A stretch of 64,000 nucleotides of DNA from Bacteroidota bacterium (GTDB lineage Bacteria; Bacteroidota; Bacteroidia; UKL13-3), in NCBI GenBank assembly GCA_027487835.1, contig JAIYCU010000028.1:22930-86929 (forward strand), read 5' to 3'. Under the pieces are notes generated by a model. The model saw only the letters and a list, made by a program, of their open reading frames with translations. It was not told where the DNA came from and did not search any database. The translations under genes and the position numbers were made by a program. Position 1 is the stretch's first letter. Each line of letters opens with the position of its first letter. Shown one piece after another: positions 20,655 through 46,500 of the stretch.

Positions 20655-20760
20655 TATTGTTTACCAAACAAACTTACCTAATCCTTTTCAATCAAAAAAT
20701 ACAACTTATTTAAAAGCCATGGCAGGTTATGTTAAATTAAAAATTAAGGTATGTTTGGCG
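20655..20760 (-). promoter_or_regulatory. conserved promoter-bearing intergenic element, copy A (core reads GGTATTTTTTGATTGAAAAGGATTAGGTAAGTTTG on the minus strand)
   Basis: Shares the acccaatccttttcaatcaaaaaatac core and the gccatggcaggtt block with copies at 26.4, 28.4, 31.9, 41.3 and 46.45 kb. Contains a Bacteroidetes -7 TAnnTTTG box, 60-140 nt upstream of a minus-strand start. Confidence 0.6.
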
Positions 20761-20791
20761 GCCACCAGGAAACGATGACTGTAGTGTTCAG

Positions 20792-21466
20792 TTATTCCTT
20801 TAACCTTTTTCCTTCCGAATTTATATAAAAATTTTCTCCATTTTTTTGTGCATAAATTTCTACATTATTCTCAACTACCAATAAATCGTAAAGGAATGGA
20901 ATTACTATGTCTCCGTTTTTATTTATTGCCCCATAAGTATTATTTTTTTTTACTATTGCCAATCCATTAAAAAAATTATCAGCACCATCAAATTGAATTG
21001 GAATTTTTACATTTCCTAAGGTGTCTATAAAACCATATTTGCCATTTTTAATTACAGCACAAAGGCCCTCTGTAAAACCTGTGTAATTTTCATCTACTCC
21101 AATCATAATTGTTGTTTTTGAAATATCACCATTTGCACCATACTCATCTTGTTTATATATTCTTGCACCAATAGAAATATTAGTATCTATTTCATAAATT
21201 AGTGGAATAATAATTTGGTTTTTATAATTTAAGAACCCTAACTTATCATTTTGGACCACCTTTATTAGATTATATCTTATATCACCTATTTTGTCATAAT
21301 TTGCTGGAATAATAACATTTTTGTTTTCGTTTAACAGCCCAATTTTATTTTGAACCAAAAATGGTATGTATCCACTTTCAAAAGCGGTTAATAAAATAGT
21401 GTCTTGAGCAGAAACATAAAAACTGTTCAATAAAACTATCAGAATTAACTGAATTTTTCTTTTCAT
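20792..21466 (-). CDS. WG-repeat (KWG) containing secreted protein
   Basis: Repeated KYGFID...G..IP..FD / YGAINKNGDIVIPFLYD WG repeats. Signal peptide from the internal Met MKRKIQLILIVLL. Confidence 0.7.
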   Translation of the reverse strand: MKRKIQLILIVLLNSFYVSAQDTILLTAFESGYIPFLVQNKIGLLNENKNVIIPANYDKIGDIRYNLIKVVQNDKLGFLNYKNQIIIPLIYEIDTNISIGARIYKQDEYGANGDISKTTIMIGVDENYTGFTEGLCAVIKNGKYGFIDTLGNVKIPIQFDGADNFFNGLAIVKKNNTYGAINKNGDIVIPFLYDLLVVENNVEIYAQKNGENFYINSEGKRLKE

Positions 21467-21468
21467 AT

Positions 21469-22062
21469 TTAATCTTTTACATACTGAGGCAGACGACAAA
21501 TTTCTAGTTGCAGACGCCATTTACTATATGGTTCATTTCTTAGAGGCGCCTGTAGAATAGTAATTAATAAAATAGTAGACTTTGTAATGCTATTCCTTAA
21601 ATCTTTGATGCCAGACATACTATTTAGTTGTATTTCTGCTAGTACGGTATTGCTTTTTACAAGCACACAATTATCACTACTATACCGTCTGCCATTTTCA
21701 ATGATGGATGCCGTATAATATGTTTGAGCTCCTGTATCTGTATCTAGAACCTGAGGTATAATTTGATCAATCAGACTCATAGAAATTGTATAGGATACAT
21801 CAGTGTTGAATTTAAAGACGCTCTTTTTTTGCTCTAATTTTTTAAATTCGGCATCACGTACTGCATAATAGATAGAGTCTTTATAAAAAATTATTGTTTC
21901 ATCATAGTTTTTCTCTAATACGGCTGGCTTAGGATCTGTCCAAGTATTAGTAGTGCTATCGTATTGACTTATCAAAGTTTTTGTTACCAGATATTTGCCT
22001 TGAGAAAAAGAATAGTTACATGTTAGTGTAATTAAAAAACAAAGAGCAATTATTTTTTTCAT
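21469..22062 (-). CDS. hypothetical secreted protein
   Basis: Signal peptide MKKIIALCFLITLTCNYSFSQ. No recognisable domain. Confidence 0.5.
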   Translation of the reverse strand: MKKIIALCFLITLTCNYSFSQGKYLVTKTLISQYDSTTNTWTDPKPAVLEKNYDETIIFYKDSIYYAVRDAEFKKLEQKKSVFKFNTDVSYTISMSLIDQIIPQVLDTDTGAQTYYTASIIENGRRYSSDNCVLVKSNTVLAEIQLNSMSGIKDLRNSITKSTILLITILQAPLRNEPYSKWRLQLEICRLPQYVKD

Positions 22063-22064
22063 CT

Positions 22065-25513: not shown

Positions 25514-26293
25514 TTATAGGCAATTTTCATTTATAACTTTTGCTACCAAATCAATGGGGTTTTTGCAATTTGCTTTTATTAAAATGTTTTTTCGATGCGT
25601 ATTAACTGTATGAAGGCTTATGCTAAGTTCTTTGGCTATATATTTACTGTTTTTACCCTCTACTATGTATTTCAATATTTCTTTTTCTCTTTTTGTAAAA
25701 ATATCAACCGACTTAGTTAAATTTTGTGTAGTTTCAATATTGTAATATGAGGGTTCGTTGTCAAATCCTATAATAGAAAAACTAGGTTTTCCTTCTTTTT
25801 TTATATGTGTAATATCGGTATGTAGTACAAGATTTACATAATAATTACTTTCATCAAATTCTATAGGTAATATTTGATGAAGCAAACGGATATAACCATT
25901 ATTTTTGGTTTTAATTCTATAATCATGCTGGGATTTATAACAACCTCTTTTTGCTAAAGCCAAACTGTTAAAAAACTCTACTGTGTAGGTTTCATAGCTT
26001 AGAAAATAGGGTTTGTCCTCAGGATGTATCTGATCTAAAAAAAACAATGCATTTATTTCGCTAGGCTCATAACCCAATACATTTAAAACATTTGGACTTA
26101 CATGTTCGATTTCCATTTGTCGAAAATTAAAAAACATATTGTAATGTTTGCCTATATGAGAAAAATCCAATATTTTTTTATTGAGTTCAAATGATAATTC
26201 TATATTTTTTGTATTGGAAATATTTTCTGATGTAATAACGTTTTCCCAAACTTTTGAGGCAGACTGATATAATGACGTTTTTGATTTATCCAT
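25514..26293 (-). CDS. LuxR/GerE-family transcriptional regulator with N-terminal PAS-like domain
   Basis: C-terminal LuxR HTH (EKEILKYIVEGKNSKYIAKELSISLHTVNTHRKNI). Confidence 0.75.
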   Translation of the reverse strand: MDKSKTSLYQSASKVWENVITSENISNTKNIELSFELNKKILDFSHIGKHYNMFFNFRQMEIEHVSPNVLNVLGYEPSEINALFFLDQIHPEDKPYFLSYETYTVEFFNSLALAKRGCYKSQHDYRIKTKNNGYIRLLHQILPIEFDESNYYVNLVLHTDITHIKKEGKPSFSIIGFDNEPSYYNIETTQNLTKSVDIFTKREKEILKYIVEGKNSKYIAKELSISLHTVNTHRKNILIKANCKNPIDLVAKVINENCL

Positions 26294-26387
26294 AACGATT
26301 TGTATGATAACAAGGGGTAGAAAAAGATTTGTGTTTTGGACAAAAGATATTTCGAGTAGTCGTCGTTTAAAATTATCACCACCGATT

Positions 26388-26465
26388 TAACTCCCGCAAC
26401 TTAATCTCAATAATTAAACATTTTTGAAAGCGATTTCAGGTTCAGCTAAATTAAAACTTTAAGGC
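26388..26465 (-). promoter_or_regulatory. conserved intergenic element, copy B (short variant)
   Basis: Shares gcaacttaatctcaataattaaac and the ...tcaggtt...aaattaaaacttt blocks with copy C. Lacks the acccaatcc core. Confidence 0.45.
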
Positions 26466-26556
26466 TTTGAATCAAGTCATCTCGAAACGCTAACTATTGT
26501 GCGGAGGATGTTTATTACCCTTATATTATTGCACAATTTAATTACACTATTGTATC

Positions 26557-28239
26557 TCAATTATAATTTCCAGTACCAGTAGCTACAAGATTTGTTGAAC
26601 CTGTGGAAATATTTTTCATTGTTATTGTGAAGGAAAATGATTTTGCTCCAGTTTTTGTAATTGTACCTGAGGTAGATTGAGATACTCCACCAAAAAGCGT
26701 TGCGGCCCAAAGATTACAATTATCGCCATTACCATTTACATTAAAAGTTCCTGACGAAGCATTAGGCATATTGTAAATGATAAAATTTTGGGCACCTATG
26801 ATAAGTACATCTATTCCGGTACAACCTAATCCTGTTGCTGCAATTGATGAACAACTACCATTAATTGTTTGCCCGTTATATGTAAACTGGCCTGTTCCTT
26901 CAGTGCCTCCACCGCCACTTCCATGTGGGTTAGAGATAGATCCGTCACAAATTTTGTTTAAATTTCCTAAACTCGTTACCCCTGAAGGAAAGGAAGCATA
27001 TTCCTTTATGATTTTGTCACTAATAGGTTCGTTTTTATTTTCTTCTTTTAATGGAATTCTTAACGAGTGTATTTTTATACCTCCATCATAGGCTGTTGGG
27101 AAAGTAATTTTTTCACTTTCAAATCCTTTATTTTCAAAAATAGATATATATGCGCCGTAATCATTACTTCCAAAATTAGCAGTAATAAAAGGATAATTCC
27201 CAACAGCACAACCAGCTGCATAATTGTTTGCACCTAAACCAAGGTTAATACCAATCGAAGATCTAAGATAAATAGAGAATCCAGGAATAGATTTAACATA
27301 ATTATCTAGCCTTGCAAAATCTAATTCAACTTGTACTACGTAACCATAATCAGGAACATAGCTATTTGGCACATAGTTAGGCATACAAACATTTTTAGAA
27401 TAAGTTATCGTTGCTGTAGGCTCCATTTTACCTAACGCACAAAAACTAGTTTGGGACGGTAATACCATTGTAACATCTAAACCAGAAACAGTTGGATTTG
27501 CCGACTCTTCCCAAATTTTTGCAGCCTCATCATAAGCAAAAACTTTTCCACCATTTTGAGCTGCATTTGCATACTTTCCAGGGACTTGAACCTTTAAACT
27601 AACACTACCTGTATTAGGAAATACTCTAACTCCGTTTACACTATAATTAATTGCTACCCATCCATAAATAAATAACCAATTATCATTACCACCGCTTAAT
27701 CCAGTGAAATCTTGTCCAGGAAATGCTTTTCTATAAAATTCAAAATCATCTGGTTTGATATATCGAATACTAATATTTACATTTCCAGTAACGGGTGTTC
27801 CATTTTCGTATTTAAATCCTCCACTACTATTAAATGTCCAACCAGTGTCAGTAACTGTCCCGCCTGTGCTAGGAATTGTGCTAGTTTCTACCGCCTTTAA
27901 CAACATAACTTTATAGGAGGTGTCGGGATTTGTAAAATTAAATAAATTAAGGCTACCGGTAAAATAGCCATCTTTTTTAACTTCAAATCTATACTTTCCA
28001 TAAGTTTCTTTGGGAGTATTAAATGTTGCAGATCCGGTTGAATTGCTGTTTGCCGTGTTTGTCCCATCACTAATTTTAGCATTGATAATAGGTTGATTGT
28101 TTTCATCAACAACCATGATTTTATAATTCTTTTCTTTGTACTGAGGGGAGATAGTTGTAGTGCTGTTAATGTTATCTTTTTTACAAGAGTATGCGCTAAT
28201 TATAAAAAGTGCAAAAATTAATTGGGGTAGATTTTTCAT
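26557..28239 (-). CDS. hypothetical surface lipoprotein (560 aa, beta-rich)
   Basis: Lipobox IISAYSCKKD. Gly/Asn/Thr-rich beta-sandwich-like composition. Confidence 0.55.
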   Translation of the reverse strand: MKNLPQLIFALFIISAYSCKKDNINSTTTISPQYKEKNYKIMVVDENNQPIINAKISDGTNTANSNSTGSATFNTPKETYGKYRFEVKKDGYFTGSLNLFNFTNPDTSYKVMLLKAVETSTIPSTGGTVTDTGWTFNSSGGFKYENGTPVTGNVNISIRYIKPDDFEFYRKAFPGQDFTGLSGGNDNWLFIYGWVAINYSVNGVRVFPNTGSVSLKVQVPGKYANAAQNGGKVFAYDEAAKIWEESANPTVSGLDVTMVLPSQTSFCALGKMEPTATITYSKNVCMPNYVPNSYVPDYGYVVQVELDFARLDNYVKSIPGFSIYLRSSIGINLGLGANNYAAGCAVGNYPFITANFGSNDYGAYISIFENKGFESEKITFPTAYDGGIKIHSLRIPLKEENKNEPISDKIIKEYASFPSGVTSLGNLNKICDGSISNPHGSGGGGTEGTGQFTYNGQTINGSCSSIAATGLGCTGIDVLIIGAQNFIIYNMPNASSGTFNVNGNGDNCNLWAATLFGGVSQSTSGTITKTGAKSFSFTITMKNISTGSTNLVATGTGNYN

Positions 28240-28367
28240 TTTTTTATTTTATGGCTATTTATTTTTTCAATTTTAATTTTTAAAATTTCTTTTTTTGAGT
28301 TTCAATAATAAGAATTAACTATCAATTTAATGGTGGCACTTTTGAGAAATTGACACAACTATTTAAC

Positions 28368-28490
28368 ACCTGCAACTTCATTTCGATAATTAAACCAACA
28401 TACCCAATGCTTTCCAACCAAAAAATACCTTGAAGAAATATGACATTATTAAAAGCCATTGCAAGTTCTGTTACATTAAAACTTACTTAA
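28368..28490 (-). promoter_or_regulatory. conserved promoter-bearing intergenic element, copy C
   Basis: cctgcaacttcatttcgataattaaac...acatacccaatgc...caaaaaatacc...gccattgcaagttctgtt. Upstream of the 26557..28239(-) start. Confidence 0.6.
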
Positions 28491-29184
28491 GGTTAATTCT
28501 GTATCCAACATTTAAAGAAATTAAACCATCATTTATAAACGGATAGCCTTCTAGAAGCGCAAATGCAGTTCCACTATTGCCAGGGCCATTATTTGGATAT
28601 GGATTACCAGTAGATAAGCCGGGATACCCCTCAGGGAAAATAAACCGCTGGTAATAACTTCCCATTAATATTCCACCTAACATCGCTTCAGCAAATAAAT
28701 TACCTCTCCCAATTTTTAATCTGCTTCCAATTGCTAAGGTGCAACCCAACCCTTGGGATAGGTATTTTTCATTGAAAGAAGGATAATTGGTGAAGCTGAT
28801 AACAGAGGATTGTTTATCTAGATGATAGCCAATTCCAATTTCTACATAAACCCCAGCCTTAGACTTTTTTATAGTACCCAATAAATATCTTGTCAAAACA
28901 CCTTCAAAAATTAAATACAAGTCAGGCTTTTTAGTAATATAATAATTGGACGCTGAATAATCGTAATATTGATTATTATAAAGTAGGGTTTTAAGTCCAA
29001 TCGCTGATTTCTCATTTTTTGCAAATTCATATTTTAAACTTCCTCCATAATTATTATTACCATCCTTTAAGGTGATTGCTGCGCTAAGAAATTGTTGCTT
29101 TATTTTCGAAGCGTCGCTATTTTGTGCATTTACACCGAAAGTGAAATGGATTATTGCGATAAACAAGGGTATTATTTTTTTCAT
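28483..29184 (-). CDS. hypothetical secreted/outer-membrane protein
   Basis: Signal peptide MKKIIPLFIAIIHFTFGVNAQ. 4-nt overlap with the upstream desaturase gene suggests an operon. Confidence 0.55.
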   Translation of the reverse strand: MKKIIPLFIAIIHFTFGVNAQNSDASKIKQQFLSAAITLKDGNNNYGGSLKYEFAKNEKSAIGLKTLLYNNQYYDYSASNYYITKKPDLYLIFEGVLTRYLLGTIKKSKAGVYVEIGIGYHLDKQSSVISFTNYPSFNEKYLSQGLGCTLAIGSRLKIGRGNLFAEAMLGGILMGSYYQRFIFPEGYPGLSTGNPYPNNGPGNSGTAFALLEGYPFINDGLISLNVGYRINLK

Positions 29185-30303: not shown

Positions 30304-30606
30304 CTATTCTATTTTTTCAACCTCAATCCAGCCTTCATTTTCATGCAGCATAAAACAGACAATTGCGTCTTTTGCTGAACCCCTACATTCCTTTATCTTC
30401 TTAAAAGTTACGGATACAGTAGCGCCCTCAGAAAAGGAGGATACTTTTTCGAGATTACAAACTTGATAGTCTTTGCCATCTAAACGCAAATAGGTCCCGG
30501 TGCAGTCACGCTCAACGGTTACGGTTAGATTTCTTTCCTTTTTGCAACTAGGAAAATATGCTATCAAAACAAGAAGGATTAAAAATAGTAAGTTTCTTTT
30601 ATTCAT
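30304..30606 (-). CDS. small hypothetical lipoprotein
   Basis: Internal start MNKRNLLFLILLVLIAYFPSCKKE gives a lipobox. Confidence 0.5.
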   Translation of the reverse strand: MNKRNLLFLILLVLIAYFPSCKKERNLTVTVERDCTGTYLRLDGKDYQVCNLEKVSSFSEGATVSVTFKKIKECRGSAKDAIVCFMLHENEGWIEVEKIE

Positions 30607-30849
30607 TTTGGCTATGTCTTTTGTGATTTGCAAATTAGTCTAAAGCTAAAACGGTTCAAAGTTATTTTTAGTTGTATGCTTGTTTAAAAGCAAAAAAGCC
30701 ATGCAAAAGGAGTTGAACTCCCCTCACACGGCCTTTAAGCATCTATTTATGAATGGAAAACTAGTCTTCTAGAGCCATAGGCAGTGTCCTCCCCTATTTT
30801 TCAAGTACAAGGATAAAAATCTTATTTATTTTGAGAGGTAGAATTAATT

Positions 30850-31800: not shown

Positions 31801-31844
31801 GTTTTATTTTTTAGGTGTCTGCCTTTTAGGTTTGCCACTAGCGT

Positions 31845-31930
31845 TTTAATCCCAGCAACTTCCTCTTTTATCTACAAACAAACATACCCAATCCTTTTCA
31901 TTCAAAAAATACCTGTAAGTGGATATGGTT
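31845..31930 (-). promoter_or_regulatory. conserved promoter-bearing intergenic element, copy D
   Basis: cccagcaacttcctctttt...caaacatacccaatccttttcattcaaaaaatacc, 50-130 nt upstream of the hydrolase start. Confidence 0.6.
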
Positions 31931-32394
31931 TCCTTTTCAAAATTTTGCTTTATTGATAGACTTACCTCTTTTGCTCTGATTACTTTTTTGCATGGCCAAA
32001 AAAGTAACCAAAAAAGCATCCCAGCCGCACCCTACCGTTCCGGTTTGTATGATTTGTTTTCATTCAAATATTATAATACCTAATTGTGGGTATAAGAAAA
32101 ATGCCGAGAAGAATAGCGTTTGAAACAAGTAAACCTAGATTTCAATTTAATACGCGCGTTCCATCTCTTGTATCACCCCATAAAAAAATGGCGCAATTAG
32201 CTTTTCATTTTGCCGACTTAGGCAGGTGCCTTTGGCTTTGGTAAAAACCTAAGCGAATAAGCACGCCAAAATTGCGTTTAGGTTAAGGCAACCTTTTTTG
32301 AAAGTTCAGCAATTGGTTTGCATTTAGTTTATTCTAAATCAAAAGGAACTTATTTTTCACAAAGTCATTTGGTACATTTTTTACTTTCAACATT

Positions 32395-34781: not shown

Positions 34782-35541
34782 TTAAGTTAGTTTTTATAGG
34801 TCAACGAATTTAATAAATTTTACACTTTGTTTTTTACTTTACATAAATTTAACCTGTATATTTAATAGACTTAAATTCAGCCAGCCCAATATTTAATTTA
34901 TTTACATAAATGTAAATTTCGGAAAGATACTATTAGGTTCTTACGTTCTTATTGCCGGTATGTTTTTAATTAATGTTAAGCTAACTTTTTTGTATACTTC
35001 GGTTTGTCTTTCATAAACAAGTCAGCCTTTTATTTTTCAAAAAGTTCAAATATAAACCTCATTCTGTTAGCATAAATTGTAAACGGCTTCGGTCTGCAGG
35101 CTAGGTCAAAAACTCTTTCTAATTCGTTTTAACCTTTTACTAATGCTGGAGGTATAGTCAAATGGTCGTAAAGGTCAGTAAGTGAATTAATAAGAAATTT
35201 TAATATTGCATCCAATACTTTTTAAGCTTTTGCAACAATTGCTTGTATTTATTTAACAATATGGTATAAGTATTGGGCTACACAAACAAATGCGCCTCTT
35301 GGCAATAACGCAACTGCTTTGGTAAAAAACCATAACAAATGGGCCTGCCATATTTCTCTGGTGGGTAGAATAATATAAGCTTCCTGTAAACAATTGGCTA
35401 AATGCAATATCTTGGGTTCAGTTTGATCCAACTCAAATTTTGCATACTTAAAAGCGGGTAAGTTTAAGACGTGCTTTTGGAAGAGAAAAGCGCAGAAGTA
35501 TTATAATAAGAAAAAATATAATATTGGAATTTTATAATGCC

Positions 35542-36726
35542 TTAAAATCTTGAAAACAGGGCTCTTAGAAAACATATAAAAGTATTATTAGTTAGTGATA
35601 AAATAAAAAGTCCAATAGCAAACACTGGAGTCAACCAAACTAAGAAACGAATAATGTTTAAATAGCTTTTTTGCTTACTGTGTAGATTATTAATTTTGGT
35701 AAATGTTGTTGTGAAATCATCACCAAGAATTCCAATTTTCTTATCATCAACAGAGTTTTCAAATCTATCAATATCATCTTTCACAAAGTCTATTGCAGAA
35801 AATTGATTACGCAGAAGAACTTCAAGTAAAACACTAAAAACAAATGCACTTAAAACCAAGGCGAAATTGAAATAGATTTTTTCGCCAGTAAGGTCAAATT
35901 GTCCAATTATTAATAAAAAAGCTGCTGGTATTGCCACAAGTTTTGTTTGTGCATCATTAATTACTGCTTGGATTTTTTTGCTGTATTCAATTATCTCCTT
36001 GTCAATTTCTGATTTAAATTTTTGATAAGAATACTTTTCTAAATATAAACTGTGGCTTTTATGGTAATTTAATGTAAGGTCTGAGAAGTTGGTAACCAAA
36101 AAATTGAATCTGTTTTTAGGTTCAATTATTTTTGATAGTGAAGCTATCAATTCATTTGTAAAAATAATTCGTCTCTCCTCCCTATCTGCTGAATCTTGAA
36201 TATGGCTAATTAAACTGTCTAGTTCTTTTATTTCAATTAAATCTTTGGCTGAATAATCCGTAGTTAGTATTAATTGCTTTGCTTGAAAAAAAACAATTTC
36301 ATTGCCCTTTTGATAATCTGAAATACTTCTTAAAAAAGAAATAAGTTTTGTAAATGCTGTATAATTTTGGATTTGAACTGGTTGAACTTGTTGGGTTGAA
36401 ACGTAATTCAGTGAGTTTACAAAGTATTTATTTTGAATATTAGATTGAGATGAGAAATTTATTAAATCTTCGAATGATTCAAAATACTTTTCATCTCCAA
36501 GTTGGTTGGAATATAGTCTTACTTTAATTCTATCGTTAATTGCAATTTGGTCAACTAGTTTATTTCGATTTAGAACAATTACAAAATTCTCAATGCAATT
36601 TGCGGCTGACAAACTTTTTAGTTTTTCTATTTCATCAAGATTAGGCACAAAAAAGCCGACTATTTCATTTCCTGAAATAGTAACTTCTTCAAGTCTTTGT
36701 CTTATCTGAATAAAATCGTTAAGCAT
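35542..36726 (-). CDS. hypothetical protein with C-terminal 3-TM region (candidate membrane effector; partner of the NdpA-like gene)
   Basis: 394 aa. The soluble N-terminal ~270 aa is charged and helical. TM helices are LVAIPAAFLLIIGQF, FALVLSAFVFSVLLEVLL and FLVWLTPVFAIGLFILSL. A 3-nt gap separates it from the upstream gene. Confidence 0.6.
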   Translation of the reverse strand: MLNDFIQIRQRLEEVTISGNEIVGFFVPNLDEIEKLKSLSAANCIENFVIVLNRNKLVDQIAINDRIKVRLYSNQLGDEKYFESFEDLINFSSQSNIQNKYFVNSLNYVSTQQVQPVQIQNYTAFTKLISFLRSISDYQKGNEIVFFQAKQLILTTDYSAKDLIEIKELDSLISHIQDSADREERRIIFTNELIASLSKIIEPKNRFNFLVTNFSDLTLNYHKSHSLYLEKYSYQKFKSEIDKEIIEYSKKIQAVINDAQTKLVAIPAAFLLIIGQFDLTGEKIYFNFALVLSAFVFSVLLEVLLRNQFSAIDFVKDDIDRFENSVDDKKIGILGDDFTTTFTKINNLHSKQKSYLNIIRFLVWLTPVFAIGLFILSLTNNTFICFLRALFSRF

Positions 36727-36729
36727 TGA

Positions 36730-37524
36730 TTATTCGGGGTCTTCTTCATTCGCAAATTGTCTTCTTAAATCATCAGGCAAATTAGTTATTCGTAATTCAT
36801 TTGTCTGTTGGTTGTAAAAAATACTTTCATTTACTAAGCCACTATCAAATTCAATTGTTAGTTTTTTGCTTCGATAAACGTAAAATTTCAAAGTCTTTAG
36901 TGTTTTATTGTGGCCTTTAATAAGAGAGCTTACTCTATAATCTTCACTCGCTGCAAATTCTTGAAACATGTCAGGCTCATCAGCACTTATCATTGATGAT
37001 ATGTGATGCAATGAAATATCCTCTTTTCTTCTAGTTTGAGCATAGCAATAATTCAGAACTTGATTTCTTAAATTTTCTTCTTCTTGAGTATCTAATTCTA
37101 GTTGTGGCAAATAATCGAGAAAAGCTCTTTTTAAGGATTCTGATGATTCTTTTGCAGATGTTTGGTCTGTACATCCAATAAATCTTTTAAAATAATTAGA
37201 AACATCTTTTCTTCCTCTTGCGAATGACAAATACGTTTCTTCATTATTGTCCCAACGAGTAACATTAACTGAATTGGCAACATCTAATTTGTCAATATCA
37301 AGACTGAATATTTCTTCAATACTCAAATTGTCATTTATATTGTATTGCTTTTTGTTGTTCAGCATTACAGTCATTACAAATTCTTCATTTTGTAGTGTAT
37401 AATGAGCAAAAACTACATAACCTCCTGTGGCTTGCGGAACTGCATTAATTACACCCAATAAATGATTCATTGCAGAAGCTGTGAAATCTAAAAACTGCTG
37501 TTCAACAAAGTAGTTTCTTAACAT
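36730..37524 (-). CDS. nucleoid-associated protein NdpA/YejK (NA37) family homolog
   Basis: [34 protein letters not shown] aligns with NdpA [34 protein letters not shown] aligns with YLTFLKGR. C-terminal [13 protein letters not shown] aligns with TIKGTPPNLRDQL. Confidence 0.6.
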   Translation of the reverse strand: [264 protein letters not shown]

Positions 37525-37736
37525 TGTTTGAAAAGGAAAAGTTACTGCATTCGGGTCAAAGATTCCATAGTTTGGATTTGACTTTTTGTAATAAACTTGC
37601 TTTATGTTTGTTACAAATTCTGTTTCTCTTTCACCGACTGGAAGTAGGTTTTCACGTAATGTTATTGTTGCATTACCTTGTGATTCTTTGTCCAGCCTGT
37701 GAACTATTATTGAGTGTAATTCTATATTATAAATTT

Positions 37737-38081
37737 TTACAATTCCCCTTTAAAAGCCTTGTCCAATAAACTTGGAATTAGTTTGGTTAATTCCTGTTCG
37801 GTTTGTTTGTGATGTTCTTTAACTGCATTTGTTTTATTGAGTAGTTCAACAAATTCTCTTTGCAATTCAATTGAAGGAACTGGAACTAATATTTTCATCA
37901 ACTTGTCTAAGCCCAATGTTTTGTTTCTTCCTATCACAATAATTTTTCCGTCAGTGAAAGTCCGCTGTTCAAGTATTAAATCGTCTGACCATTGGCTATC
38001 ATACAGCTTGGGCAACACTTCCTTTCGGCAAGTGTCCGCTTCGCTATCGTGATTGTCAATATGTATAGTTTTATCACTCAT
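37737..38081 (-). pseudogene. chimeric relic ORF: HsdR N-terminal domain fused to HsdS C-terminal conserved tail (type I R-M remnant)
   Basis: N-terminal SEADTCRKEVLPKLYDSQWSDDLILEQRTFTDGKIIVIGR matches HsdR_N (SEAxTRxxLIDPxLxxxGW...). C-terminal PVPSIELQREFVELLNKT...LIPSLLDKAFKGEL is the canonical HsdS C-terminus. Confidence 0.55.
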
Positions 38082-38145: not shown

Positions 38146-41100
38146 TTAAGTTGGTTGTTCATCCTCTATATTAATTTTTAGTACTATTGCAAATTGAGCA
38201 AAACTTGATGATAGGTTAGTTTTAGTTATGTTCCTATTTTTGTGATTTCTGAATTCATCTTCAACTTCTGCTGGTTCAAAATGTTCACCTAAGATAGTGG
38301 CTAAATAAATTGAAGTTAATTTGTCAAAATCATTAGTTGGCTTTTGGAAATTCAAATTAATTGTAGTTTTTAGTTTGTGAATTTTTGAGATTTCACTCTT
38401 TGGTATAGATGGAATCAAAATCTTACTCAAAGCCCATGAAGTAACTCGTTGCAAATTATAATCACCCGATTTAATCCATAATTTTGTCAAGTATATAACA
38501 TATTGTATCCTTAAACTATCTGGGAAAATATTTACTTCTCCTGACCAAGCAACACTCCAGCATATTGAGAAATGACAATGGGCATCATTTGTTTTGAGTA
38601 AGTCATACATAATTTTGAATATTTCCTCTGAAACTGAAATTTCTGAAATTCCTATTTCAAGTGGTCGAAATGATAAACCATACGCAAAGTTCATCATGCC
38701 TAATGCTGCTATACATTTATTTTCATTCGTTTCGCTTTTTAATGATAAAAGAATTTCATTTGGAATTGAAGATATATTTTCTGAATTCGCCAAGTCAGTA
38801 TAGAAAATGTCTGCTAAAGTTGACCCTAATGGGGACGAATATTTATCATCATATTTTCCAAAAAAACATTCTTTAACTCTTTTTCTAAATGCATTTCCAA
38901 ATTTATTTTTAAGAATAATATCTGTGTTTCCTCTTCCAAGGATTGTATAGATGTTTTTCGCATACCATTCAATTGCAGTGCCTAATAAGTCTGGACTAAT
39001 TTGAATTTCATTTGCAAGGCAGCTACCTAAAAGGGAGGGCGCAAGTTTATCTTCCTTTAGTTGTTCCTTTTTTTCTTTAGTGGCAATAATTTTTGATTCA
39101 GAAATTAAATATTCAATTAAGTCTTTTGTATCCCTTTCTAAAAGAACAGCAGCCAATGGTATTACCTCTTTCCAATTTTCATTATTTACATTTGGCTTAA
39201 TAATATCCACAACTTTACTTTCAATATCTGATAATGGAATAAACTTTTTTACTATCGCTTTCGCTGTCAAATACTCTTGGAAACTTAAATGCAAAAATTC
39301 ATATACCGCAGTTATGTTACCTGAATCAAGTTGTTTATGACCTGTCATTATTAGTAAGCTGCTTCTTGATTCAACCCTTTTTATAAATTCAGTGGGATTA
39401 ACATTTGTATAGCCTAAAATTTCTGGCATTTGTTTACGTGCATCAATGAGACAACCATTAAGTTCTTCTGAAGTAATCGTTTGTTGACCATTTTTAGTCA
39501 TCCAATATGCTACAAAAGCAAGTTGGGGTTCTGCTTCTTCAATGTCAAGAATTTCATGTCCTTCAACATTCCATGTCACTAAGAGAAGCTTAATCATTTC
39601 TTGATATAAAACACTTCTTTTAGTTGGAAGATACCCTGCCCATCTTTTAACAAAAAGTAGAGTAGTTAAGAGAAGTGGATTCTCGGCTAATACTACTATT
39701 CTATTGTCCTTTATAATTAAATCACTTAGCTTATTTGCTTCTTTAATTGTGTTTTCTGAGTCGTCTATAATTGCTTTGTGCCATTTTAAACACAGCTCTT
39801 CAATTTCCTCACCAATCAAATTTGAAACTGTATAGTTCTCACAATAAGTTGCTAATGAACCAGCTACAACTCTAAATCCCGCCTCTCGTGATGTTACTAT
39901 AATATTAATTGTAGGGTATGTTGCAATAAAGGTTCTCAGTTGGTTTACAAAGGCAATTCTATTCTTGTCTTCTGCAATTTCATCCAATCCGTCAATTAGT
40001 AACAACGCATTACCATTTTGCAATGACTTTGAAACTAAAATTGAAAAATCATCAGCGCAAGAATGAATTTCTGCTCTAGCAGGTATTCCGTTAATAATAT
40101 CAGTAATACTTAAAGTAACATTGTCCCCAAGTTCTCTACACCTTAAAAAAATTGGAAACCAATCTTTGTCAGGAAGTTTGTCATTTATTTGTATACGCCT
40201 TTCAGGGAAAGCATATGCAATTGCTATACGCTTAATAAGAGTTGATTTTCCGCCACCTGGCTTTGCAAGTATTGCAAGTTTTGATTTCTTTTCTAGGATT
40301 TCACCTATACCTTCTCTCGGTTTATCATCAAAATCAAATTCATCATTTATCCTTATTTGCAGTTTTTTACTCAAATGAAGAGGGACAAAAATATTTTCCA
40401 GCTTTACTTTAACCGAACCAGCTTCTTTATCAGTAGGTAATCCTTCAAATTGGATTTCACCTAATTCATTTTCTAAATACTTGAAATATTTTTCGCCTGT
40501 CTCTTTTAAGTTTCGTTTGGCTACTTTGGTTGTTTCCTCTTTGTTTAATAGGGTTAGTCCATCAAATAAATTTTTAATGTTATTGTCTATTAAAATTATC
40601 TCTTCTGCTAAATCTTTAATAAGAGGCTTTCCTTCCGCATGAACTAAAGCAACATGAGATGGTTTTTGTCCGTGCGAATCTGAATAATAAATTGCCCAAA
40701 CCCAACCTTTATCGTAAGCCAATAAATCGGCATAATCAAGCATATATAGCCCTGATATTAAATTAGATGAAGATGAAATTGCCTTCTCTATTGAGACTAA
40801 AACTCTTCCACGAATCAACTCCTCTACAATTTTTTCTGGCTTAATTAAAATTACTCTTTTATTGTCGGCTTCATTTTCTTGTTCAATTGCAGTTTCCTTA
40901 AAACCTGAAAGAGATATAAAATATCCTACAATGCTAATGCCTTTTGCCCCTTTTTCTTTTTTGCTTTTTCTTTTTTCGACATCAATAGCACCAACAAATT
41001 TGTTTATGTCCGCGCCACCTATTTTTTCTGAGTGAGCTTTACACTCAGCAATAGCTATTTTTTGTTCCGTTCTGTGATTTGAACTCAAATCTAATTCTCT

Positions 41101-41232
41101 GCCTGATTTGTGAATATTAAGCCTTGGTTCATCATATCCCAAAGTATGGAAAAGGTCAGACATCAATCGTCCAAAAAGATCACCTTTTTTGTTTGAATCA
41201 ATTTCTAAAATTTCAATGTTTCTAAGTTTCAT
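38146..41232 (-). CDS. NLR-like antiphage STAND protein: N-terminal Mrr-like PD-(D/E)xK nuclease, central NACHT NTPase, C-terminal helical-repeat sensor (bNACHT/Avs-like)
   Basis: N-terminal ELDL...AIAECK PD-(D/E)xK motif. Walker A AKPGGGKSTL. NACHT Walker B LLLIDGLDEI. NACHT-specific IIVTSRE. About 500-aa helical repeat C-terminus. Confidence 0.8.
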   Translation of the reverse strand: MKLRNIEILEIDSNKKGDLFGRLMSDLFHTLGYDEPRLNIHKSGRELDLSSNHRTEQKIAIAECKAHSEKIGGADINKFVGAIDVEKRKSKKEKGAKGISIVGYFISLSGFKETAIEQENEADNKRVILIKPEKIVEELIRGRVLVSIEKAISSSSNLISGLYMLDYADLLAYDKGWVWAIYYSDSHGQKPSHVALVHAEGKPLIKDLAEEIILIDNNIKNLFDGLTLLNKEETTKVAKRNLKETGEKYFKYLENELGEIQFEGLPTDKEAGSVKVKLENIFVPLHLSKKLQIRINDEFDFDDKPREGIGEILEKKSKLAILAKPGGGKSTLIKRIAIAYAFPERRIQINDKLPDKDWFPIFLRCRELGDNVTLSITDIINGIPARAEIHSCADDFSILVSKSLQNGNALLLIDGLDEIAEDKNRIAFVNQLRTFIATYPTINIIVTSREAGFRVVAGSLATYCENYTVSNLIGEEIEELCLKWHKAIIDDSENTIKEANKLSDLIIKDNRIVVLAENPLLLTTLLFVKRWAGYLPTKRSVLYQEMIKLLLVTWNVEGHEILDIEEAEPQLAFVAYWMTKNGQQTITSEELNGCLIDARKQMPEILGYTNVNPTEFIKRVESRSSLLIMTGHKQLDSGNITAVYEFLHLSFQEYLTAKAIVKKFIPLSDIESKVVDIIKPNVNNENWKEVIPLAAVLLERDTKDLIEYLISESKIIATKEKKEQLKEDKLAPSLLGSCLANEIQISPDLLGTAIEWYAKNIYTILGRGNTDIILKNKFGNAFRKRVKECFFGKYDDKYSSPLGSTLADIFYTDLANSENISSIPNEILLSLKSETNENKCIAALGMMNFAYGLSFRPLEIGISEISVSEEIFKIMYDLLKTNDAHCHFSICWSVAWSGEVNIFPDSLRIQYVIYLTKLWIKSGDYNLQRVTSWALSKILIPSIPKSEISKIHKLKTTINLNFQKPTNDFDKLTSIYLATILGEHFEPAEVEDEFRNHKNRNITKTNLSSSFAQFAIVLKINIEDEQPT

Positions 41233-41261: not shown

Positions 41262-41490
41262 AAGCTGTAATGCCGCAAATTTGTTTTCCATCAACTAATT
41301 TAATACATGCAACTCCAACTTATTTAACAAACTTACCCAATCCTTTACAAACAAAAAATACCCAAAAGTGGGTATATGAAAATATTCTAAATGAATAATG
41401 ACACATTGCACATAAAGTATTAATAACTTAAAACGAAAGATTCAATACACATTTCTACAAACCATTGCAGGTTCCGTTCAACTAGAATTT
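41262..41490 (-). promoter_or_regulatory. conserved promoter-bearing intergenic element, copy E, containing perfect palindrome ATACCCAAAAGTGGGTAT (41358..41375)
   Basis: gcaactccaacttatttaacaaacttacccaatcctttacaaacaaaaaatacccaaaagtgggtat...aaccattgcaggttccgtt, upstream of the NACHT gene start. Confidence 0.65.
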
Positions 41491-41586
41491 ATCTCATTAT
41501 GTTAATTGTTTCTATTGGCATTCGATGGTTTTCAATCCATGGCTTGGCTTGGGGTCAAAATGAAATGCTTGCTGTTGTAGGCAGTG

Positions 41587-42063: not shown

Positions 42064-42440
42064 ACTTTGTTTTTTGCTTTAAAATTTGGGTATATAGAAT
42101 AACATTGTCATAATTTCAGAGTGTGAAAAACCTCATCAAACTTTTTAGTGTAAAAATATCAAAAAATGAATGATTAGGCAAGTATCTTGGTAGTTAAATT
42201 TGCATCAGCAAAACAATTATGGATAACATCAAAGTTAGTAATATCGATCAGATGGAGCTTTGTTGTAATTCTGGAGATACCTTTACACTTCTTCCATTTT
42301 TTTGTTTCTGGATAGACTCATATTTCACTCCAAAGCTTTTTACAAAGCCTATTAAAGTTTTGCCAGTTTGTTGGTTTTCTTAATGATTTTGAAATTTCCA
42401 TTATTAAATGCGAGGTGTCCCTAAAGGTTATAGCTTAACA

Positions 42441-42556
42441 ATTCGGAGGTTTGCGATGGCGGGGATTATTAGCACTAAACTTCATTCGGAGAACTGAATT
42501 TCCACCTTGCACAAAAGTGTCTGCGATGCACGGAACCCCGCCTATTGCAAATGTGC
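42441..42556. other. GC-rich structured element E2: 15-bp long-range stem (tttgcgatGGCGGGG ... CCCCGCCtattgcaa) enclosing about 70 nt, 3' of the RloC-like gene
   Basis: Local GC far above surroundings. Homologous (about 65-70% identity) to element E1 at 45075..45205. Stem base pairs covary with E1 (C:G vs T:A, G:C vs C:G). Shared inner motif GTGTCTGnGAnGCACnGAACC. Confidence 0.6.
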
Positions 42557-42604
42557 TGCTACAAGTTGGGCTTTTGTCTGTCTGAATATATGTTGTTTCA
42601 AATG

Positions 42605-44995
42605 TCATAATTGAACTTCAATTAAGTTAAGAGTGTCTTGTATTAGGTTGTCCAATTCAGGTTCAGTAATAGTATTAGGGTTAATACCTAACATTGTGTA
42701 ATCTGGAGTTGGGTCACCATGATGTGGTTTCCAGGAAACTCCATTAATTAAATGAAGTGTAGATATTATTGTTGTCCTGTTTGCATTGTCCCTAAATACA
42801 ACTGGCAATGTATCTAAAAATGTAATTAATCTTCCAAATGTTTGTATTCCTGTCATAGTTCGAACTTCCTTGTAGAATTTGAACCGTAAATGTGCTTCAA
42901 GAACATTTCTCAACCAACCTAAAACAGTGTCTTTAATTGCATGGTTTGGGTTACTTCTAAAAGCCTCCAATGCTTCAATATGTTTAAAGTATTCAATTTT
43001 TACCAATTCTTCTAAATCACATAGTTCAAGTTTAGATGCTTTGGCTACGAAATCTTCCTTTATACGAAGTGTGCATTTTAAGGTTGCTCCAATGTCTTTG
43101 CCTATTTCATGAAGAAAATATTCATTGTGGCTTAAAACAACCACCTGCTTTAGTTGTTGAAATAATGTTCTAATAATTCCAATTGTATAGGTTCTTCTAT
43201 TAGTATCTAAACTTGATAAAGGGTCATCAAAAATTAAAATTTTATCTTGGCGGTTTGGATCAATGTCAAGTTTGGATAAAAAGAACGCTAAAGCAATTGT
43301 GCTTTTATCTCCCTCGCTCAAACATTCCTTGGCATTAAATGGTTGATTTGGGACAAATGATATGTCCTTGCCGTCTATTGTCAATTTGTAAGCGATTTTG
43401 CTTTGTGTTGCTCTTCCTGCTGGAGCAACATGAACAACATCCTCTATTCTAAAAAGTGTCTTGAAAACATTGCCCAAATAATGGTTGATACGTGTCTGGT
43501 AGCTATTGAAAAAAGTTGCTGCTGTGGTTTGCTGTTGTTGCGATAAAGCTGTGTATGCTGTTTCTAAACCTCTAAGTGTTTGTTTCTCGGCAGACAATTG
43601 AGTGCAAAGCGTAACAATGGGAGTTTCATATCTCTTTTTAATTCTTTTTAGTCTATCAACCGCAAGCTGTGCATTTGCAGCAGTCTGAATACCTGCACGA
43701 AAAGTTGTAATTGCAGCATTGTAAGTTGTAATGCTTTGATTGTAGCTTTCAATGTTTGTGTTAATGGTCTGTCCAGAAGACAGAAAAACAGTAGCGGTGG
43801 CGGTAGCCACCGCTACTGTAGGATTTTGTATTTTTTGTTGGAGTGAATCAATTAACCTTTGAAACTCTGCTCTTAAAACAGTTTCGTCCGCAATGATGTT
43901 AAAAATTGGTGGATGAACTGTATTTGGCAAGTGCGTAGCCCATAACGTTACTCTCCCTGTATTTGTCTGATTGATATTGTTTATCGCTTGTATGGCAGCG
44001 TCCAAATTGAAGTTTTGAAGCGAAGTCAAATGTGATTGTAGTCGTAGAACTAAAGCGTTAAAGTCAGCATTAAATTTAGTGATATAGGCGTTTAGAATTT
44101 CAACATTGCCATCAATAGTCTGCATACAAAATGGACAAGAAATTGTGGGTTCATTTGCTGCTTGTTTTCTCTCCACATATGCAAATCCTCTTTGCAGCCA
44201 ATTTTCAGGTCCGTCAAGTCCGTTGTCTGTCAAGTCTTGACAATGATTTGAAAACAAAGTTTCCAAAGCTGCATTTTGAATTGCTTGTGATGTTGTCTGT
44301 AAGTCTGTGATAAGAGAAGTGAAATCAATACCCGATATTATTCGGGTGAGAGCAGTAAGTTGTTGTAATGTTTGAATTATTGTGTTTGCATTCGCACTCG
44401 CTAATGCAGCCTCCGCCGCTGTAATTTGTTGGTCAATTCCGCTAGATTGTGTTACAGGAATAGCAAGAAATGAAGTAATTAAGTCAGCGGTCAAACTGTT
44501 TCCCACTTGCTGAATTAATTGTTGTTCAATATTTGTTATTGATTGTTTTGATATGACTTTAGCAGCTTTGTTTTGTTCAATTTGATTTTGAATTGCAATT
44601 CCTTGTGCACCGATAACAAATTGATGAAGTTGCTTTTTATGTTCATCATTAAAGTCAAACCCTGAATAGATATTGTCGTTGACAAAATGAATGTCAAAAA
44701 TCTCAATATTATCAAAAGGAGTTGTCCAACCAGCAGCCCTTAAGGTGTGAAATGTATTCGGTGTCCCTGTTTGAGTTATTTGTGCTGCTTGTGCTGCTAT
44801 ATGGTTTGTAGAAATTCTACTTCTAACGATTTCAGGTTTGTTGGTTGTCAAGGAACGAAACACTGAAGTTAGTGTGGTTTTACCACCTCCATTGTTGCCA
44901 TAAATTAAGGTCAGCTTTTGAAAATTAATCTGTCCAGCAGCAGTGTAGTTGCGGAATTTTCCAATGGAAGTAAGTCGTTCAACTTTGTTTATCAT
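42605..44995 (-). CDS. RloC/PrrC-like anticodon-nuclease-type ABC ATPase (AAA_13-like): split ABC head with long coiled-coil insert, CxxC zinc-hook, C-terminal HEPN-like domain
   Basis: Walker A GNNGGGKTT at the N-terminus. About 450-aa Gln/Ala-rich coiled-coil with SCPFC. ABC signature LSEGDKSTIALAFFL, Walker B ILIFDDP, H-loop VLSHN. C-terminal roughly 190 aa carry an Rx5H match to the HEPN Rx4-6H motif (LRNVLEAH). Confidence 0.7.
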   Translation of the reverse strand: MINKVERLTSIGKFRNYTAAGQINFQKLTLIYGNNGGGKTTLTSVFRSLTTNKPEIVRSRISTNHIAAQAAQITQTGTPNTFHTLRAAGWTTPFDNIEIFDIHFVNDNIYSGFDFNDEHKKQLHQFVIGAQGIAIQNQIEQNKAAKVISKQSITNIEQQLIQQVGNSLTADLITSFLAIPVTQSSGIDQQITAAEAALASANANTIIQTLQQLTALTRIISGIDFTSLITDLQTTSQAIQNAALETLFSNHCQDLTDNGLDGPENWLQRGFAYVERKQAANEPTISCPFCMQTIDGNVEILNAYITKFNADFNALVLRLQSHLTSLQNFNLDAAIQAINNINQTNTGRVTLWATHLPNTVHPPIFNIIADETVLRAEFQRLIDSLQQKIQNPTVAVATATATVFLSSGQTINTNIESYNQSITTYNAAITTFRAGIQTAANAQLAVDRLKRIKKRYETPIVTLCTQLSAEKQTLRGLETAYTALSQQQQTTAATFFNSYQTRINHYLGNVFKTLFRIEDVVHVAPAGRATQSKIAYKLTIDGKDISFVPNQPFNAKECLSEGDKSTIALAFFLSKLDIDPNRQDKILIFDDPLSSLDTNRRTYTIGIIRTLFQQLKQVVVLSHNEYFLHEIGKDIGATLKCTLRIKEDFVAKASKLELCDLEELVKIEYFKHIEALEAFRSNPNHAIKDTVLGWLRNVLEAHLRFKFYKEVRTMTGIQTFGRLITFLDTLPVVFRDNANRTTIISTLHLINGVSWKPHHGDPTPDYTMLGINPNTITEPELDNLIQDTLNLIEVQL

Positions 44996-45074
44996 GCTTG
45001 AAAGGTGTTCTTGTCAATTGTTTGTATTATGCAGTCAGCTTCATGTTAGCACGGTCGTCATAGCCTTGCTGGTA

Positions 45075-45205
45075 AAGTTTTCGGGCTTGGCGAAGGTGGC
45101 GATTTTCACCACAAATGTTGATGCGGAGAACCAAACTTTGATTAACCTCAAATGTGTCTGTGAAGCACTGAACCGCCACTTTTGCCAAACCCGTGTTATG
45201 TGCAG
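45075..45205. other. GC-rich structured element E1 (homolog of E2): long-range stem ttggcgaaGGTGGCG ... CGCCACttttgccaa, between the SIR2 and RloC-like genes
   Basis: Direct-orientation homolog of E2. 15-bp stem with two G·T wobbles. Compensatory changes relative to E2. Covers the spurious 62-aa ORF 45027..45215. Confidence 0.6.
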
Positions 45206-45211
45206 TATTTT

Positions 45212-46393
45212 TCACTTTATAAATTCAGATTTTTCAAGATTTGGATAAGTCTCAATGAATTCCTCAAACGTGCCTTTAAAGGTTTCAAGTTGACCAATTT
45301 GCTTTTGGGAGAAAATTTGATTTACTTTTTCCCAATGAGCATCTGATGATGTTGGGTCTACTACTTTGATTATAGGTTTATTTCTATTCCAATTTAAAGC
45401 ATGTTGTAATAAATTTAAAAATGCTAGGTCTGATTGAGGAAATGAATATCCGATTATAATAATTTCTTGTGCTTCAATTAGTGATTTGAATGTTCCATCC
45501 CAAAGTTCTTTAGCTGTAGAATTTTCGTTCTTACCTAAAATTGGGGCAACTAAATCATGTTCAAGTTTTGCTCCACAAATGCCACATTTAAATCGGTCAA
45601 ATAAATTTCTTATTTCTTCTGTACTATGTTTGTCATCGTAATACATTGAGTAACTATTCACAATTTTGTAGTTATGGATAGTCTTACAGTTTGGACATTT
45701 AAACCAATCAAACGACCCATGTAATTTAATCAATTCATGGTGTTTACTGTAAGTCCATTTATATTGTTCATTACGGATTAAATGAGCTCCGTCACTAAAT
45801 GTATAGATTGGTACTATATAATGTGGCACAACATTAAAATTGCTTTCTACGCCAACTACACCCCAGATGTGGTCAAAATATTCGTCATCAAGTTTACAGT
45901 CATAGTTAAATGATATAGTACTTAATACCGGTATGTTATTGTCGTTAATTGTTTTGAACCATAGTCTATCAAAGAAATTTTTGTATAATTCTTTTGAGTT
46001 GTCTAAAAAAATTGTGTTATCAATGAATTTAGAAGTTTTGTTGTCAATGGCAGAAAAGATAATTTTTGTAAGCGTTTTAAATACTTTAGTTAAAGTGTCT
46101 TGGTTCAGAAGATAATTGTCAACATGAATTATAGAATTGTTTCGTATAAAATAATCAAGTTGTCCCAAGAGATTTTCATAATCAATCCACTCTTTTTCCA
46201 AGTCTTTTCCTTGCAATTCCAAAACAATTGATTTTACTATTGTAAATACTTCCTTAAAATGACTTGATTTACATTCCTTGATAAATTCAATTATAGATGT
46301 TGGAAGCTGATTAAGAGTTGGAATTCCATAAGCAAAAGAAGCTCCTGCCCCGAAGACACAAGCTGTTCTCTTTATATTTTTATGGTCTGTCAT
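45212..46393 (-). CDS. SIR2-like (SIR2_2/DSR-type) defense-associated protein with C-terminal Cys-rich zinc-ribbon
   Basis: N-terminal ACVFGAGASFAYGIP matches the SIR2_2 hallmark (hFhGAGhS..GhP). C-terminal CPNCK...CGICG. Defense-island context. Confidence 0.65.
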   Translation of the reverse strand: MTDHKNIKRTACVFGAGASFAYGIPTLNQLPTSIIEFIKECKSSHFKEVFTIVKSIVLELQGKDLEKEWIDYENLLGQLDYFIRNNSIIHVDNYLLNQDTLTKVFKTLTKIIFSAIDNKTSKFIDNTIFLDNSKELYKNFFDRLWFKTINDNNIPVLSTISFNYDCKLDDEYFDHIWGVVGVESNFNVVPHYIVPIYTFSDGAHLIRNEQYKWTYSKHHELIKLHGSFDWFKCPNCKTIHNYKIVNSYSMYYDDKHSTEEIRNLFDRFKCGICGAKLEHDLVAPILGKNENSTAKELWDGTFKSLIEAQEIIIIGYSFPQSDLAFLNLLQHALNWNRNKPIIKVVDPTSSDAHWEKVNQIFSQKQIGQLETFKGTFEEFIETYPNLEKSEFIK

Positions 46394-46417
46394 TTAATAT
46401 TGCAAATAACTTGATTA

Positions 46418-46500
46418 TAAACGCACTAATGCACCCAATATCAAACAAACATACCCAATCCTTTTTAATCAAAAAATACCCAAAAGTGGGTATATTTAAA
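46418..46500 (-). promoter_or_regulatory. conserved promoter-bearing intergenic element, copy F, containing palindrome ATACCCAAAAGTGGGTAT (46476..46493)
   Basis: caaacatacccaatcctttttaatcaaaaaatacccaaaagtgggtat is near-identical to copy E. On the coding strand it carries the TTTTTTG / TATGTTTG (-33/-7-like) boxes just upstream of the SIR2 gene. Confidence 0.65.

Follow-up and report, generated by a model that had tools for sequence, protein, structure and literature searches.

The closest described counterparts of the sequence family analyzed here are putative mobile promoters, defined as upstream sequences with at least 80% identity over at least 50 nt that precede unrelated genes (Matus-Garcia, Nijveen and van Passel 2012; PMC3575422). 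In a 64,000-nt stretch of Bacteroidota DNA (assembly GCA_027487835.1, contig JAIYCU010000028.1; hereafter the window, numbered from its first letter), we find a family of intergenic elements of about 125 nt, here called M elements after their three boxes M1, M2 and M3. Like putative mobile promoters, they place similar upstream sequence before unrelated genes of one genome, are attached to no known mobile element and belong to no Rfam family. Unlike those promoters, they are clustered in one hypervariable island and share one orientation, while the module adds a preceding putative terminator, a 3′-flank box and a leader box, and its copies in sister genomes lie at shuffled junctions. Correia elements, the miniature inverted-repeat transposable elements (MITEs) of Neisseria, are likewise intergenic, about 105-155 nt long and known in full and internally deleted forms with a promoter inside, but the M elements show no significant terminal inverted repeats, no TA duplication, a single orientation and few, clustered copies. 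Integron attC sites in cassette arrays (Vibrio VCRs; clusters of attC sites lacking integrases, CALIN) are also repeats of about 120 nt between same-strand genes in regions that vary between relatives, and some M copies carry AAC and GTT boxes near their two ends; in contrast to attC, the M elements form no hairpin, do not conserve GTT, separate multi-gene units, have breakpoints away from the R′-like box, are accompanied by no IntI and bear their own predicted promoter and terminator. Phage morons resemble the present arrangement as promoter-gene-terminator units with transcriptional autonomy that are added between existing genes, but here the setting is chromosomal rather than prophage, and the promoter region is itself a conserved repeat common to the units.

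Within the sequence read, the family is confined to a narrow clade, clustered, in one orientation and located at the joints of shuffled gene units. We interpret it, with about an even chance of being right, as a reused intergenic promoter module that was copied to several joints of a hypervariable low-GC island, the genes of which are accessory or anti-phage. Judged from sequence, this is a genuine case of lineage-specific reuse of a predicted promoter and fits the putative mobile promoter definition; the phenomenon is of a known kind, and the module is a new member of it. Pairwise identities of 89% over 65 nt (E-F), 88% over 52 nt (D-F), 84% over 50 nt (D-E) and 80% over 50 nt (B-C) lie at or above the published threshold, and the coding sequences downstream of these copies are not paralogous; pairs with copy A match over a stretch of only 36-41 nt. 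The genes next downstream of copies A-F, which agree with the downstream genes listed in a preliminary description of this DNA, are mutually unrelated: a DUF6252 protein, a LuxR-PAS regulator, a 560-amino-acid (aa) CarboxypepD_reg-like protein, an alpha/beta hydrolase, a NACHT-Mrr protein and a SIR2 protein.

Core matching and module profiles together place six copies, A-F, where the preliminary description had put them, all on the minus strand (Table 1). A 31-nt core matched with at most three mismatches at 20669-20699, 31879-31909, 41328-41358 and 46446-46476 (copies A, D, E and F; minus strand), with 0 matches in 100 shuffled controls, and a repeat finder independently reported a 62-nt block present five times (family D5) and a 53-nt block present four times (family D7). 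Profile searches of the 64 kb found M1 (GTTTTAATTTAACAGAACCTGCAATGGCTTTTAA) in A, B, C and E, M2 (GTATTTTTTGATTGAAAAGGATTGGGTATGTTTGTTTG) in A, C, D, E and F, and M3 (GAAGTTGCAGGTGTTAAAT) in B, C, D and E, at E-values of about 1e-9 for M1 and M2 and 1e-3 to 1e-2 for M3; outside the copies listed, the window held no comparable match to any of the three profiles. A wider M2 profile picked up a weaker seventh copy, G, 5′ of the SBF transporter gene, and the family ranges over 19.9-46.5 kb of the window, with every copy on the minus strand. The earlier view that three blocks are common to all six copies did not hold. Alignment of the six regions reveals a mosaic in which only C and E possess all three boxes, B lacks M2 and shows a gap of about 48 nt relative to C where M2 would sit, D and F lack M1, and M3 is degenerate in A and F.

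Table 1. Copies of the M element and associated sequences in the window, with their parts and the adjoining genes.
Feature	Position	Strand	Parts	Adjoining gene
Copy A	20632-20750	-	M1 20742-20704; M2 20702-20665; -7 box TAAGTTTG 20676-20669; degenerate M3 ~20650-20632	5′ of DUF6252 lipoprotein gene 19984-20580
Copy B	26375-26467	-	M1 26457-26418, nearly abutting M3 26403-26383; M2 (predicted terminator/promoter core) absent	5′ of LuxR-PAS gene 25514-26293
Copy C (complete)	28355-28485	-	M1 28482-28443; M2 28428-28391; -7 box TATGTTGG 28402-28395, one mismatch; M3 28380-28359	5′ of 560-aa gene 26557-28239
Copy D	31838-31930	-	weak hairpin; M2 31912-31875; -7 box TATGTTTG 31886-31879; M3 31862-31842; no M1	5′ of alpha/beta hydrolase gene, start ATG 31737 (Logan contigs) or TTG 31800 (open reading frame list)
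M0 (alternative left flank of copy D)	31931-32003	-	hairpin and T-run	
D′ (degenerate extra copy)	32015-32094	-	hairpin and M2-like sequence, seen by eye only and not recovered by nhmmer	
Copy E (complete)	41293-41492	-	M1 41487-41449; ~70-nt insertion between M1 and M2; terminator-like hairpin 41375-41358 and T6; M2 41361-41324; -7 box TAAGTTTG 41335-41328; M3 41316-41297	5′ of NACHT-Mrr gene 38146-41232
Copy F	46415-46495	-	terminator-like hairpin 46493-46476 and T6; M2 46479-46442; -7 box TATGTTTG 46453-46446; degenerate M3; no M1	between M15 peptidase gene 46511-47002 and SIR2 gene 45212-46393
Copy G	19929-19979	-	T-run and M2-like predicted promoter; -7 box TATGTTTG 19940-19933	5′ of SBF gene

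The conservation extends well beyond a promoter consensus, as had been proposed, and marks the family as a true repeat. Changes in M2 between copies fall mostly at the two free positions of its -7 box, and the spacer GAAAAGGATTGGGTA is conserved to the same degree as the box itself. When copy D is compared with its orthologous copy in a sister genome (L071a), M2 differs at 2 of 39 nt while the flanking M0 is about 78% identical; M2 is closer between the two than its flank, which indicates constraint on M2.

M2 has a promoter-like layout that points at the downstream gene, TTTG followed by 16 nt and TAnnTTTG, and this compares with the sigma-ABfr consensus of TAnnTTTG at -7 and TTTG around -33 (PMC7366714), of which the TAnnTTTG -7 box shows conservation in Flavobacterium as well as Bacteroides (PMC7641319). 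The upstream TTTG match carries little weight, because Flavobacterium johnsoniae yielded no -33 motif, as PMC7366714 notes. The sigma-A -7 box that the preliminary description assigned to the element is exact in A, D, E and F, as well as in G and four sister-genome copies, and stands with one mismatch in C, but is absent from B; among copies the free nn is TG, AG or TA, and the six fixed positions are altered once (in C). TTTTTTG is invariant in M2, and the first T of the TTTG lies 20 nt ahead of the TA. Measured from its first base, the -7 box lies 44-163 nt from the start codon across the family and 60-163 nt in the M2 copies, compared with 31-57 nt for the same box ahead of katG, lysR, SBF, a 109-aa gene and a trypsin-like gene of the window; the longer distance is due to M3 and the leader in between. 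A sigma-70 promoter scan was uninformative for this phylum. In E and F, M2 starts inside a perfect 7-bp hairpin followed by T6, which a scan scored as terminator-like; D retains an eroded form of this hairpin, and A and C have none. Both E and F contain three TGGGTAT motifs: two form an inverted pair within the hairpin, and the third is a direct copy that overlaps the -7 box. As to the LuxR-PAS gene behind copy B, no recognizable TAnnTTTG lies within 250 nt of it (26294-26417 region), and its expression may rely on transcripts that read through from the 560-aa gene, or on a motif within M1, GAACCT-N17-TGT, whose likeness to an extracytoplasmic function (ECF)-type promoter is by eye only.

Comparison with close relatives reveals where the units are joined. 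Two sister genomes, GCA_027488905.1 (locus L071) and GCA_027487655.1 (locus L074), encode SBF orthologs that are 95-96% identical to the window protein, and both carry the M family beside SBF. The sister layout comprises an M0-hairpin-M2-M3 unit (9403-9490), a 101-aa lipoprotein gene, an M1 box (9880-9919) that begins immediately after the stop codon of that gene, a G-type M2 and SBF. The window ortholog of the 101-aa gene (30304-30633; DNA 88% identical over 30310-30687) has neither M2 and M3 nor M1 and lies behind an additional hydrolase gene with its predicted terminator. By position, copy D and the sister M0-M2-M3 unit are orthologs; in the sister genomes, M0 is the 3′ flank of a 71-aa Fer4_19 gene. 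Copy G, whose spacer is unlike the M2 core, is orthologous in both sister genomes and is preceded there by an M1 box. The DUF6252 gene lies directly upstream of SBF in the window and 7 kb downstream of SBF in L071. Homology between the genomes breaks at the T-run with which M2 begins (GGTRTTTTTTGA; GGGTGTTTTTTGA), just after M3, or at the stop codon before M1. The preliminary description had proposed that related genomes would distinguish a syntenic regulon from a variable repeat, and the presence of the element at non-orthologous junctions in the sister genomes favors the latter. No M element was found in a further relative, L078 (SBF 91% amino-acid identity), nor in L079, a 20.5-kb sister island by an M15 peptidase gene, though this too is a same-strand run of different defense genes.

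A separate short intergenic block, AATAATTTATGRGG..GAGGCAWCCTTTT..AATAATGTCTAATTAG, is present in the window at 20590-20631, ahead of the DUF6252 gene, and in L071 at 14520-14575 and 17708-17760, after genes with type IX secretion system (T9SS) tails.

In the promoter-module model that we propose, M1 would constitute a box in the 3′ flank of the upstream gene, followed by a putative intrinsic-terminator hairpin and T-run (intact in E and F, eroded elsewhere), then by M2 as a candidate sigma-A type promoter with TTTG at about -32, the conserved 16-nt spacer and TAnnTTTG at -7, and finally by M3 as a putative leader box. Each copy would probably stop transcription of the preceding gene and start that of the following one, such that unrelated, probably horizontally acquired genes would receive one ready-made transcription signal, and the island would be rebuilt by shuffling units composed of promoter, leader, gene or genes, and terminator. 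Given the breakpoints at the M2 T-run, after M3 and before M1, the module most likely spread via recombination at short shared sequences rather than by transposition or hairpin-dependent site-specific recombination. The preliminary proposal of a dispersed repeat that donates a promoter is upheld in so far as the family is a true repeat with a sigma-A-like promoter sequence before unrelated genes, but not in its suggested MITE or repetitive extragenic palindromic (REP)-like nature, and the core is absent from B.

Several points weigh against this model. The promoter and terminator activities it assigns to the module are predictions from sequence, and the copying mechanism is likewise one that we infer. 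Copy B is without the promoter core yet occupies the same position, and the conservation of the spacer, M1 and M3 goes beyond what a plain promoter explains, which suggests a further bound factor or another function. The family is also restricted to one island and one orientation, neither of which a freely mobile promoter would require, and the count of copies covers the window and the sister loci.

The main rival is a regulon signature, in which a regulator that binds the M2 spacer, and possibly M1 and M3, would keep the copies alike and co-regulate the island genes, for instance through joint silencing or induction of accessory and defense genes. This explanation is compatible with reuse of the module and differs in what maintains the similarity; we consider it unlikely. 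It would account for a spacer conserved like the -7 box, unlike copy G and ordinary window promoters, for the threefold TGGGTAT of E and F and for the better conservation of M2 than of its flanks between orthologous copies, and regulator genes are present in or near the island (the LuxR-PAS gene and a response-regulator-like gene at 48515-49189). It is disfavored by the functional incoherence of the downstream genes, by the position of the element ahead of different genes in the sister genomes, where the ortholog of one such "member" stands without the element in the window, and by the lack of any regulator linked to the element. Our first idea, based on the AAC...GTT boxes and the same-strand array, was instead that the elements are attC sites of an integron. 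More broadly, M elements could be the cassette-junction recombination sites of a system, integron-like or otherwise site-specific, that adds genes in series and in a single orientation, with M1 as an R″-like xxxxAAC box and M3 as an R′-like GTTAAAT box, which we judge improbable. Consistent with such a site, the array has a single orientation and is hypervariable between close relatives, M1 directly follows a stop codon in C (gene 28483-29184) as in the sister copies, some copies have an M1 motif (ATTTAAC) and an M3 motif (GTTAAAT) that agree with RYYYAAC and GTTRRRY, with one compensatory difference between B and C beside these boxes, and hairpin elements of a second type (R2, below) occur in the same island. 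What keeps the cassette-junction explanation alive is that the 560-aa gene, which lies between C and B, has a 60% homolog in another organism flanked on both sides by strongly folding attC-like palindromes. The boxes themselves are inconstant, however: AAC is present in M1 of A, C, E and the sister copies but is AGC in B, and GTT, present in M3 of A (degenerate), B and C, is replaced by ATT in D, E and the sister M3 boxes. Folds of A-E as single-stranded DNA do not surpass those of shuffles in stability (z -0.9 to +0.9), with copy F alone folding well, owing to its terminator hairpin; the M1:M3 duplex is not significant (0.06-0.54, that is, 6-54% of shuffles are at least as stable); RNAalifold returned 0 pairs on the six copies; and the island's most stable intergenic folds include no M element. 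Moreover, copies are spaced 2.0-9.4 kb apart with several genes in each interval, the breakpoints do not fall at the R′-like box, no recombinase, integrase, transposase or invertase domain was found among the approximately 43 window proteins scanned, and no tyrosine or serine recombinase appears in the gene tables of L071, L074 and L079 (62 kb of sister loci). The attC idea was dropped on the folds, the duplex test, the RNAalifold result, the absent recombinase and the breakpoints.

A related and highly improbable proposal is that M elements and R2 hairpins mark the joints of an integrase-less, integron-like capture array in which genes slot in after the terminator-promoter unit; if true, this would be a promoter-carrying junction site without an attC hairpin, and captured genes would be insulated and expressed at once. 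We assign a similarly very low probability to a Correia-like MITE, in which M1 and M3 would be the inverted ends, M2 an internal outward promoter and B an internally deleted form. The intergenic location and the length of the element, the partial inverted symmetry of M1 and M3 (TTTAACA-nAA-CCTGCAA versus TTGCAGG-TGTTAAA), the coexistence of a short, internally deleted form (B) with a long form (E), and the predicted promoter, which Correia elements also carry (cited in PMC3575422), are all consistent with this. Yet the symmetry is at chance level and amounts to no significant terminal inverted repeats; conserved sequence continues past the complementary boxes on both sides; no flanking direct repeat or target-site duplication is visible at the copies; all copies in the sequence read share one orientation, those of the window cluster within 27 kb, and the remaining 37 kb of the window and L079 are free of them; partial copies end at module borders; and neither a transposase in the window nor a match in plasmid, phage, viral and JGI metagenome collections was found. 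A palindromic hairpin unit of the REP, BIME or REPIN type was also not found, folding being limited to the terminator hairpins of E and F, and the lack of terminal inverted repeats, hairpin and target duplications, together with the single orientation and clustering, leaves a MITE or REP-like nature unsupported. Least probable of all, and in our view nearly negligible, is an inverton family in which M1 and M3 would serve as the inverted repeats of a master invertase, as in Bacteroides capsule loci. In C and E the predicted promoter is indeed flanked by boxes that are partly complementary, and several copies stand ahead of surface or accessory genes, but the repeats are imperfect (3-nt bulge) and not significant, A, D and F are short of one box, the boxes of B are only about 30 nt apart, no invertase is encoded in the window, and same-strain contigs assembled from five sequencing runs agree at 100% identity over the elements, each copy keeping its orientation in all of them. 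The insignificant repeats, incomplete boxes, absent invertase and identical assemblies led us to drop the inverton.

Searches of public collections with the M2 core gave 27 single matches in GTDB species genomes, each to the 19-nt seed only and at chance level, 0 matches in viral contigs, none in plasmids and phages, and in JGI metagenomes 0 matches with a strict pattern and 31 chance matches with a loose one; these negatives are weak, as the sister M2 (TATATTTG) escapes the 19-mer pattern and the searches did not return the source genome itself. No M element lies in the contexts of 560-aa gene homologs at up to 64% identity (L064-L070 and L085-L088). Rfam yielded no gathering-score match in the window and no relevant match at E-values up to 5 in 19.8-47.2 kb, and no tRNA was found in the window.

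The second repeat family, R2, is about 115 nt long and is found on both sides of the PDC-S06/AAA_13 gene, at 45078-45196 (R2a; minus strand) and about 42440-42560 (R2b; minus strand). R2a, located between the SIR2 and AAA_13 genes, forms a strong RNA fold (-47 kcal/mol, z -5.6), while R2b is diverged (z -0.7), its outer stems being retained through compensatory differences. A partial R2 lies between the DUF4365 and HsdR genes of the sister defense island (L079:15641-15744). R2 has no Rfam match and could be either an attC-like site in decay or a structured RNA that belongs to the defense locus. In the locus L085 (GCA_020051655.1, contig JAHZTJ010445591.1), the 60% homolog of the 560-aa gene lies between palindromes at 1-140 and 1955-2100, which are attC-like, imperfect, about 135 nt long, have the ends ACACAAC...GTTGTGA and fold as single-stranded DNA at -22 to -24 kcal/mol. 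The 5′ 17 nt of this palindrome (AAAATACTGCACAYAAC) recur at the start of R2a in the window (45211-45195). In an unrelated organism that encodes a 59% homolog of the 560-aa gene, a dense array of CTAGCGCAGAGATG-type repeats stands beside a Y1 (IS200/RAYT-like) transposase gene (L066:2800-3900).

Between 19.0 and 47.0 kb every gene lies on the minus strand, and G+C content is 30-34% at 20-42 kb versus 36-41% across most of the remaining window. The island genes have no common function and include, besides the DUF6252, LuxR-PAS, 560-aa and alpha/beta hydrolase genes, those for a WG-repeat protein, a C1 peptidase, a fatty-acid desaturase, a trypsin-like protein and an SH3 protein, a frameshifted NA37 gene, an HsdS fragment, and the defense-type genes for the NACHT-Mrr protein, the PDC-S06/AAA_13 ATPase and the SIR2 protein.

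Gene remnants are also visible, among them a DNA-methylase-like tail in a 760-nt gap (34782-35541) and a type I HsdS C-terminal fragment (37737-38081); the NA37 gene is split by a frameshift into 36730-37524 and, upstream, 37525-37736. A 338-aa gene that is intact in L071 is represented in the window by pieces at 35231-35497 and 32184-32238, about 3 kb apart with the SH3 and trypsin-like genes between them. Downstream of the cwlK-like M15 peptidase gene lies a defense-gene hotspot whose cargo differs in two close relatives: in the window it carries the SIR2 gene, the PDC-S06 ATPase gene (42605-44995), the NACHT-Mrr gene and a weakly DS1_2-like gene (35542-36726), and in GCA_027487655.1 (L079:10602-20513) a MORC-like HATPase_c_3 gene, a DUF4365 gene and a complete type I restriction system. 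Elsewhere in the window, a 121-aa open reading frame at 48050-48415 contains 21-nt tandem repeats (10 units; array 47998-48312), and a very large gene at the right end contains seven 261-nt tandem repeats (58184-60049) that probably encode Ig-like adhesin domains.

The window and its two sister genomes together provide a rare side-by-side view of breakpoints in promoter-gene-terminator shuffling, and for this uncultured lineage the 39-nt M2 core offers a candidate promoter of compact size. Should the promoter prove active, copying of the module would give unrelated, newly acquired genes, including the NACHT, SIR2 and other defense genes, a working and possibly co-regulated transcription signal.

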